Notes: generated from the sequence alone by a model not told the origin. Counted from the whole stretch's first letter, positions 29,689 through 31,695 are shown. The stretch is 63,984 nt of DNA, filler included, from 22 parts of 22 records of this genome joined end to end with filler, not necessarily neighbours in it, one strand, 5' to 3'. A program made the numbers and translations.

Positions 29689-31695
29689 CTTCTCCTGCGA
29701 GGTTCGGCGTAACACTTCCAACTGCAAGCGCAGCTCCGAAATCTGTTCGTTCTTGCTTTCCACGTCCGCAGAGAGCTTTCGCACAGCCTGTCCCTACAAA
29801 TGCAAATCGTTGAGCCCAAAGTCCCGCAGATGAGCGAACACATGACAAGAAAAATATTGCAAAAACAGTTCTCGGCAAAGTGAATTCGACGTACGTGTTC
29901 CGTGAGTTGCCTGCGTTGAGTGTCACACTGTAAGCGCTGATCGGATAATTGAGCGTTCTTCAACTCCACATCCGCCACACTCTGTGCGAGTTTAGACTCC
30001 TGCACAGACGGTATGAGTGAGATACACACATATACGGACATAAGTTGTACGCCGAGCTGATGAAGGGAGCCTCAGCAAGAATACCACAAACCAATACAGC
30101 TCACTCACAGGAAACAAGCAGCAACAATGACAACACAACTGGTGACGTATCATCGAATAATATATACGCAGAGTTGCATGTGGTACCGACAGATTGGACG
30201 TACCAAATCAAGAACAGCACGACGTTGCGTCTCCAGCTGTGAACGAAGGTCACTGATAACTCCTTCTTTCTCTTTGAGCTCGCGCGCGATGTAATCTCGC
30301 AACTCGTGCAACGTTTTCTCCTACAATTTGTAGCACGATATTAGCTGTGAGTGCGGGAGAGAACCAACACACACCATCCAAAAGACAAGAAATAAAACAC
30401 CCGCCACCCAAATACAAGAGCGGTTTTGTAGGTGGAGCATTGTGAAAGAACAAGTACTTTCCAGTGTAATCGTACCTTATCCTGTAAAATTCGCTTCTGA
30501 ACCTCGGCATGTGCTCGTAACTCAACAATTTCGGCGTTTCGGATTTGCAGCTCGCTATTCAGACTTCGTGTAGCGGAATCCTGCTTGCCACAAAACACAC
30601 AAACATCAGTGCGATGATTAAGTTGAACTCACGGCGCCAGAGTAAAAAAAACGCCTAAGAATGGGTACCTTTTCCGACTGAGAACGTTGCAGGCCTTCCA
30701 ACTGCGTGCGCACGTCCCACAGAACCTGATCGCGTAGGCCGACGTCGCTGGCAATGGATTCACTCAACTCCTCTTCCTGAATATTCAAAAAAAATTAGAG
30801 ATTGGTGCGACGAACGTGAAAACTCAGTGGAGAAGAAAGGACACTCTACGGACGCTGGTTTGTAAGAAACATTACGAAGCAGTACCTTTGCAGCGGCAAT
30901 TCTGCGCTGAACCTCCACCTGCATGCGCAGATCTGATGTCAGCTTATCCCGAGACTCAATCTCGTCCGACAGGTGCTCGACGATCTTTCGGGTTTCTTGC
31001 TCCTGCAACCAACACACAGTCGATGAGGGACACCCACCGCAACCTCCGGCGTGCTGGGTGCCGATTAATAAAGAACGTACTTTGGCCATGTGAGTACGCT
31101 GCAGCTCGTCTATCTGCTCACGCAGCTGCGCAATGGTGCTGCCTCGCGAATTACGCTCACGTGTGATCTCTTCGTTGAGAGTGCGCAGTGACTCCTCCTG
31201 CTCCGTCATAAGAATACACACATGCATCAGCAATGAAATTTGTAAGGGAATGTTCGTATCCGCACACATCATCACATCATGCGTTTTCAAATCGGCCACA
31301 ACGCTCCCATGTAGACAATGGACGATTTGGATGCATACCTTCAGCTGAAGATCGCGTTTCACGATCTCATACTGGCGCCGCAAATCTTCACTCATCTCCT
31401 CCTTCTCTGACAGGGTTGCGGAAAGCTTCTTGAGCAGCGCATCCTACCCACGCCGTCAACACCATCATCATAAGTTATCACACATTGAACCAACCAACCA
31501 AACAACGTCGGCGTTTAGTTACTCGGCACGTACTTTGTCTTGCATCGCGCGTTTGTATTCATCGATCTGACGCCGCATGTCTGCCAGCCGCTGCTCTGCT
31601 TCCTCGCTGCTGCGCACATGTGTCCCCACCTCCTGCTCCAGACACTCTTGCACACGGTGCAGTTTGTTGCTGAACTCGGCCCGAAGCGCTTGCTC
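29689..31695 (-). CDS. Eukaryotic coiled-coil repeat protein, internal fragment; exons 31695-31534, 31443-31339, 31197-31081, 31002-30886, 30776-30669, 30580-30476, 30320-30204, 29999-29895, 29793-29689
   Basis: Nine AG/GT-bounded phase-0 exons, all open, each ending in the same motif. Confidence 0.88.

Follow-up and report, generated by a model that had tools for sequence, protein, structure and literature searches.

Genes that encode one repeat of their product per exon, with a uniform intron phase, are an established arrangement, known from fibrillar collagen and from LRR, TPR and nebulin genes. In fibrillar collagen, symmetric phase-0 exon units of 54 base pairs (bp) hold whole structural periods of the protein. 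Among coiled-coil rods, SF-assemblin/beta-giardin is segmented and has a short sequence period of about 29 residues with skip residues, and tropomyosin is a coiled coil without breaks whose polar residues have a quasi-period of about 39-40 residues, one per actin. Exon arrays described in the literature include the Ectocarpus LRR and TPR genes, with one repeat per exon and uniform intron phase (PMC3341825), the Tetrahymena LRR arrays, built of 90-bp exons (PMC6564038), and the simple repeats of nebulin, tandem alpha-helical modules whose number is varied by alternative splicing of the exons that encode them (PMC7109182). The subject of this report is a locus on the minus strand at positions 29689-31695 of a 63,984-nucleotide stretch of DNA (hereafter the window), where nine consecutive exons each encode one copy of a repeat that has no relative in the collections we searched. 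We consider it probable, at roughly two chances in three (0.68), that the locus is part of a spliced gene whose product is a rod-shaped, heptad-based coiled-coil protein and which grew by ancient exon duplication.

The locus resembles each of these systems in part. Its units of 35-39 amino acids (aa) are close in length to the 35-40 residue modules of nebulin (PMC7109182). Nebulin, however, is a single helix wrapped on actin and not a heptad coiled coil, and the 347 aa encoded here hold no match to the pattern [ST]DxxYK and no Pfam match to nebulin. With tropomyosin there is no sequence or Pfam similarity, and the period is carried here, unlike there, by clearly duplicated units with invariant arginines and a strict exon boundary. 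The likeness to SF-assemblin/beta-giardin that the original prediction had suggested does not go beyond analogy, the period being 35-39 residues against about 29 and no exon having a Pfam match. Collagen differs in its triple-helical Gly-X-Y repeat, as opposed to the alpha-helical heptad repeat at this locus. As in the LRR and TPR arrays, uniform phase lets exons be duplicated, shuffled or dropped in frame (PMC3341825, PMC6564038); those arrays encode solenoid ligand-binding repeats with equal exon lengths and recent, dynamic shuffling, whereas here we find a coiled coil, exon lengths of 105-162 nucleotides (nt) and old duplications. Literature searches on coiled-coil repeats of 35 residues or encoded by exons, and on the rootlet proteins of chytrids, returned no matching family and no coiled-coil example of the one-repeat-per-exon architecture, searches of this kind being unable to show absence. 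What we rate as new is the orphan coiled-coil repeat family with strict registration of exons and heptads.

Nine open blocks of 54, 35, 39, 39, 36, 35, 39, 35 and 35 codons lie on the minus strand between 31695 and 29689, each directly preceded by AG and directly followed by GT (9/9), each a multiple of three in length (9/9) and each in phase 0 on both sides (9/9). Exon 1 (31534-31695, 54 aa), which carries the terminal motif described below, is preceded by a partial upstream intron or upstream region (31696-31810) ending in TAG, a triplet that also closes the exon-1 frame upstream. Intron 1 (31444-31533; 90 nt, GTACGT...TAG, five in-frame stops) separates it from exon 2 (31339-31443, 35 aa), and introns 2 (31198-31338; 141 nt, GTATGC...CAG) and 3 (31003-31080; 78 nt, GTACGT...CAG), both in frame and free of stops, flank exon 3 (31081-31197, 39 aa). 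Exon 4 (30886-31002, 39 aa) is followed by intron 4 (30777-30885; 109 nt, GTACTG...CAG), exon 5 (30669-30776, 36 aa), intron 5 (30581-30668; 88 nt, GTACCC...CAG), exon 6 (30476-30580, 35 aa), intron 6 (30321-30475; 155 nt, GTACGA...TAG), exon 7 (30204-30320, 39 aa), intron 7 (30000-30203; 204 nt, GTACGT...CAG), exon 8 (29895-29999, 35 aa), intron 8 (29794-29894; 101 nt, GTACGT...TAG) and exon 9 (29689-29793, 35 aa). Since just 17 genomic bases, the start of intron 9 (29672-29688, GTGCGT...), separate exon 9 from the loxP-like end of the contig, the gene continues at its 3' end, and it probably continues at its 5' end as well. The map agrees in exon lengths and phase with the original prediction of nine symmetric phase-0 exons of one repeat each, whose three example peptides correspond to exons 2, 7 and 9 and whose intron range of 78-204 nt is that measured here (90, 141, 78, 109, 88, 155, 204 and 101 nt); its further claim that any exon could be skipped in frame is true arithmetically, all lengths being multiples of three.

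Several features of base composition and splice signal accompany this map. The donors share the consensus GTACG(T), with G1 and T2 in 9/9, A3 and C4 in 8/9 and G5 in 7/9, and a branch-like YTRAY sequence lies within 45 nt of the acceptor in five of the eight complete introns. Exons have a GC content of 0.540 (0.663, 0.337 and 0.620 by codon position) against 0.450 in introns, and contain 18% T where introns contain 36%. The first codon of every exon begins with G (E, D or G), and the lysine at -1, counted back from the donor, is AAG or AAA. Such G-initial exon starts and AAG/AAA exon ends are the usual exonic splice context, so the -1 and first positions may reflect splicing and not protein constraint. 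These signals support the reading of the locus as a fragment of a real, intron-rich eukaryotic gene, the splicing of which we infer from the sequence.

The repeat itself is defined most sharply by residues counted back from the donor: R at -6 (9/9), D/E at -10 (9/9), Q at -12 (8/9) and R at -14 (9/9), together with D/E at -16 (8/9), K/R at -22 (8/9) and K at -1 (7/9). All seven of these counts had been given exactly by the original prediction; the full consensus string drawn from them fits just three of the nine exons. A shorter core, [DE]xRx[QH]x[DE]x3R, is present in eight of nine exons and is absent from the six-frame pieces (90,335 aa) of the remainder of the window. When each exon was left out in turn and a profile made of the other eight, the left-out exon ranked first among the window's six-frame pieces in all nine cases, with scores of 12.0-47.9 bits against 5.3-8.5 bits for the best background piece, and the profile of all nine exons detected no tenth copy in the window (next best piece, E 0.29). 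The motif stands at a fixed, ungapped distance from the donor, and the flanking introns fall at one and the same point of every repeat, always in one phase. Each unit can be divided into a variable N-terminal half, which accommodates the length differences and register shifts, and a conserved C-terminal half of two regular heptads, which carries the polar signature D/E-x-R-x-Q-x-D/E-x3-R.

Spliced together, the nine exons give 347 aa with no proline, six glycines, 39% charged residues (D/E/K/R) and E, L, R and Q as the commonest residues. Hydrophobicity has a period of 3.54 over the whole length with a power of 4.78 (next peak 1.04), a value reached by none of 200 shuffles, and this period, together with the lack of proline and the high charge, fits the helical coiled-coil character originally proposed. 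Assignment of the a/d register was made with a crude, home-made 21-residue sliding method, which places 20 register changes along the chain and none at any of the eight exon junctions; the reading is ...abcd|efg... at seven of these, and the junction of exons 4 and 5 is also continuous (g|a). The earlier arithmetic, in which 35 aa would be five heptads and 39 aa four heptads plus a hendecad, holds in this crude register for exons 6 and 9, each with five unbroken heptads, and for exons 3 and 7, each with a single internal +4 shift in its first half; exon 4 is irregular. Within the conserved half (-18 to -1), a/d positions fall at -18, -15, -11, -8, -4 and -1, which puts the invariant arginines at e (-14) and f (-6), and the Q of -12 and the D/E of -10 at g and b, respectively. 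The periodicity of the sequence suggests an oligomeric coiled coil, and a two-copy complex prediction of exon 1 alone, made without controls, scored 0.01 and speaks neither for nor against pairing.

Compared over their last 35 codons, pairs of repeats have mean identities of 26.4% in amino acids, 41.1% in nucleotides and 28.9% at third codon positions, the best pairs reaching 40% amino acid identity, and two arginines are invariant in all repeats. The introns compared with one another have no shared match beyond 15 nt. Because third-position identity looks saturated and the introns are unrelated, the duplications are old, as had been proposed, and because the motif has been kept while synonymous sites became saturated, selection has held it. 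That the intron position relative to the motif is the same to the base in all units fits tandem duplication of one symmetric exon. We propose that repeated tandem duplication of one such phase-0 exon, long ago, built up the gene, in which case each exon adds one unit of 35-39 aa. Spliced, the exons would give at least 347 aa of uninterrupted alpha-helical coiled coil in a product that may be a rod-shaped structural or scaffold protein. With a rise of 0.1485 nm per residue, each exon would add about 5.2-5.8 nm of rod, and the mean unit of exons 2-9, 36.6 aa, corresponds to 5.44 nm. The polar signature would then return at intervals of about 5.4 nm along one face of the rod and form periodic docking sites, which could fix the stagger as rods self-assemble into fibres or hold a partner that is itself periodic.

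Two other readings concern whether the locus is a spliced, working gene at all. The 227-aa open frame at 31443-30763, which reads through exons 2-4, could be a single coding exon with introns 2 and 3 retained, each of these being a multiple of three without an in-frame stop; we hold this to be extremely unlikely, as both have GT...AG ends of the same type as the remaining introns, are T-rich and Cys/His/Gly-rich, unlike the exons, and are passed over by the repeat profile, which matches the read-through at its exon parts only (residues 1-35, 86-121 and 151-186). They also coincide with low-confidence stretches of an AlphaFold model of the same 227 aa, in which the exon-coded parts are continuous helices with 10-residue block means of about 50-71 in the predicted local distance difference test (pLDDT), and the long stretches with pLDDT below 50 (36-82, 128-141 and 187-227) lie in the intron-coded parts (36-82, 122-147 and 187-227). 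That the locus is not a working gene, either because it is decaying as a pseudogene or because it arose as an artefact in assembling a linker-contaminated library, would account for a contig that ends in library linker within a mixed, contaminated assembly and for the failure to find a homologue of a gene known here from genomic sequence alone. Yet all nine blocks are open, the splice signals are intact at all 17 boundaries seen, the motif has been kept in spite of synonymous saturation, and the linker is confined to the extreme end of the contig, outside the exons, so that we judge a dead or artefactual locus very unlikely.

Other alternatives accept the gene and dispute the fold or the function. 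The units could be the helix-turn-helix modules from which alpha-solenoids of TPR, PPR or HEAT-like type are built, with the conserved polar residues lining a ligand groove, a reading in keeping with a unit length near that of TPR (34) and PPR (35) (PMC8160929), with the one-repeat-per-exon arrays documented for Ectocarpus TPR and LRR genes (PMC3341825), with the N, G or S near the middle of several units, after which comes an S/T-D/E pair capable of capping a second helix (-21 to -16), and with the conserved K/R at two presumed core positions. We think it unlikely, since none of the nine exons has a TPR, PPR or HEAT match in Pfam (E up to 10), the hydrophobic period of 3.54 is single and coherent across all 347 aa, and proline is absent and glycine scarce. 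The AlphaFold model, low in confidence as it is, places the three exon units inside unbroken helices (H2-54, H65-130 and H141-190), one helix to each unit, which argues weakly against a helix-turn-helix unit. Quite unlikely, in our estimate, is a rod that binds a periodic lattice and serves as a ruler along a filament such as actin, one signature per subunit in the manner of tropomyosin or nebulin: the conserved residues are indeed polar and not core, and the mean unit of 5.44 nm is near the spacing of nebulin modules, reported as about 5.5 nm, one per actin (PMC7109182), but the agreement is a numerical coincidence only, the SDxxYK motif and any Pfam match to nebulin or tropomyosin are lacking, and units of 35, 39, 39, 36, 35, 39, 35 and 35 aa would let the register drift on a strict lattice. 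A bolder version, to be taken as a long shot, is a filament ruler evolved independently in an unsampled protist lineage, with each exon a step of one subunit length and the R-x-Q-x-E-x3-R face turned to an actin-like lattice.

Some observations nonetheless weigh against a coiled-coil gene as we propose it. The contig holds a fragment only, in which neither a start nor an end nor a terminal domain is seen. Conserved K/R occupies -22 and -1 (8/9 and 7/9), both presumed core d positions, which is unusual for a stable hydrophobic core; smoothing in the register method favours continuity, so that continuity across junctions is support and not proof; and the AlphaFold model of the read-through has a mean pLDDT of just 48.8. 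As no collection searched holds a relative, conservation across species cannot serve to confirm the gene, and a recently dead pseudogene may also fit what is seen.

The searches behind that statement were broad. No Pfam family reached the cut-off, whether with the 227-aa read-through at E up to 1 or the nine exons at E up to 10, and at the latter setting no family was matched by more than one of the nine. A repeat profile of 36 positions (A1) matched six proteins at E of 0.001 or less among 1.84 billion protein representatives, none of which we accepted; all six contain near-identical tandem copies, to which the profile aligned with only 13-25 of its 36 positions or with no scored stretch. The best of them (P0001) is a butyrophilin-like V-set/C2-set/SPRY protein whose tandem copies also match 41 unrelated Pfam families and which hhalign aligned with a probability of 25% over 20 columns. 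Another (P0005; E 2.4e-4, positions 3-27), with FAZ1 and WD40 domains and long coiled-coil tandem repeats, was judged a chance similarity. In the PDB the best match, a coiled-coil segment of fibrinogen alpha (E 0.006, 21 positions), was rejected as generic, and in a protein atlas queried with exon 1 the best matches were bacterial clusters at 0.90, with recognition below the mark, and were likewise set aside. Word-indexed searches among longer proteins yielded none of 7,999 candidates with A1 and none of 1,963 with the 227-aa read-through; scans of genome and metagenome contig collections gave 78 and 118 pattern matches, respectively, none of them confirmed; and in the nearest genome compared (G001, a single contig of 4.6 Mb) the repeat profile had chance matches only, the best at E 0.002 and covering 23 of its 36 positions. 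The family thus proved as unrecognisable as first stated. The protein of the organism that carries the exon repeat is itself absent from the library of 1.84 billion representatives, and as coiled coils evolve fast and the profile has just 36 positions, distant relatives may exist undetected.

Some indication of the source organism comes from another contig of the window (31911-34033), where a minus-strand fragment of a diphthine synthase gene (DPH5) and a plus-strand kinesin motor fragment stand head to head. The donors of two short introns read in the DPH5 gene are GTGCGT and GTTCGT, similar to those of the nine-exon gene, which fits one organism for both contigs. The DPH5 fragment (117 aa) has no identical protein in a collection of 5.8 billion proteins, its best identity being 74%, to metagenome proteins, with 68-73% to chytrids, 68-72% to Mucoromycota and 67-69% to plants and molluscs. 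In a quick tree (51 rows, 117 columns), for which 50 of the 120 listed matches were picked for named taxa, it forms a long branch with rows from EukProt, MMETSP and JGI (86-87 in the Shimodaira-Hasegawa-like approximate likelihood ratio test, SH-aLRT) and falls inside no named group, and a zoosporic fungus as source was dropped for this reason. We can say only that the source is an intron-rich eukaryote without representation in the collections searched.

The window is a composite. It contains 42 runs of exactly 44 N, paired around the word TTAATTAATTAA, and the resulting spacers (44 N, TTAATTAATTAA, 44 N) split it into 22 segments of 2.0-4.5 kilobases; being a chain of spacer-joined contigs, it lends no biological meaning to adjacency. 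Seventeen of the 22 segments look bacterial, with long open frames, and five (12845-15150, 29651-31810, 31911-34033, 48756-51096 and 61954-63984) are without long open frames and look eukaryotic or non-coding. The contig carrying the nine exons (29651-31810; 2,160 bases, GC 0.493) has a spacer on both sides and matches none of 5,426 Escherichia coli genomes. By contrast, the segment just below it (26548-29550) is 100% identical to moeA-iaaA-gsiA of E. coli K-12 laboratory strains and was found in all 5,426, and G001 has 61% of the window's sampled words in common with it. The bacterial share of the contigs looks like laboratory E. coli, K-12 in the main, mixed with eukaryotic contigs, and the contig of the nine-exon locus is eukaryotic and stands alone in a mixed assembly, the flanking contigs not being its true neighbours.

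The nine-exon contig opens, outside the exons, with a loxP-like half-site (29651-29671) that we read as a leftover library linker and not as genomic sequence. About 20 bases of this kind open the plus strand of that contig and of the DPH5 contig (31911-31930) and of no other contig in the window; we take them to be half of a loxP site, presumably an untrimmed linker of a Cre-lox paired-end library. The contig at 61954-63984, also without long open frames, is probably from the same eukaryote; it holds one fragment with an ENTH domain (minus strand, E 2.6e-22) and another of impB/mucB/samB, Y-family polymerase, type (plus strand, E 1.3e-8). The contigs at 12845-15150 and 48756-51096 have no open frame longer than 162 aa, one of them ends in a CA microsatellite, and the 11 open frames checked in the two gave no Pfam match; they are possibly eukaryotic intergenic or intron-rich DNA. 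Among the bacterial contigs, that at 10370-12744 is low in GC (0.357) and resembles a surface-polysaccharide cluster, with genes for glycosyltransferase group 1 and hexapeptide transferase. Rfam families were matched on bacterial contigs at 7219-7334 (magnesium riboswitch), 15374-15447 (tRNA), 47616-47702 (t44 RNA) and 48541-48650 (CssrA small RNA), and the scan of the window matched no RNA family on the eukaryotic contigs.

The practical weight of the locus is limited by its being a fragment. Even so, it illustrates that short eukaryotic contigs in contaminated, bacterial-looking assemblies can carry gene families absent from protein collections of billion scale. Should the ruler reading be true, the length of the ruler would be written in the number of exons and adjustable by in-frame exon skipping. 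More generally, since the exon boundaries coincide with the heptad frame, the putative rod could lengthen or shorten without breaking the coiled coil, and if the junctions mapped here are used, the gene would be a clear example from nature of a coiled-coil rod put together from structural units the size of an exon.

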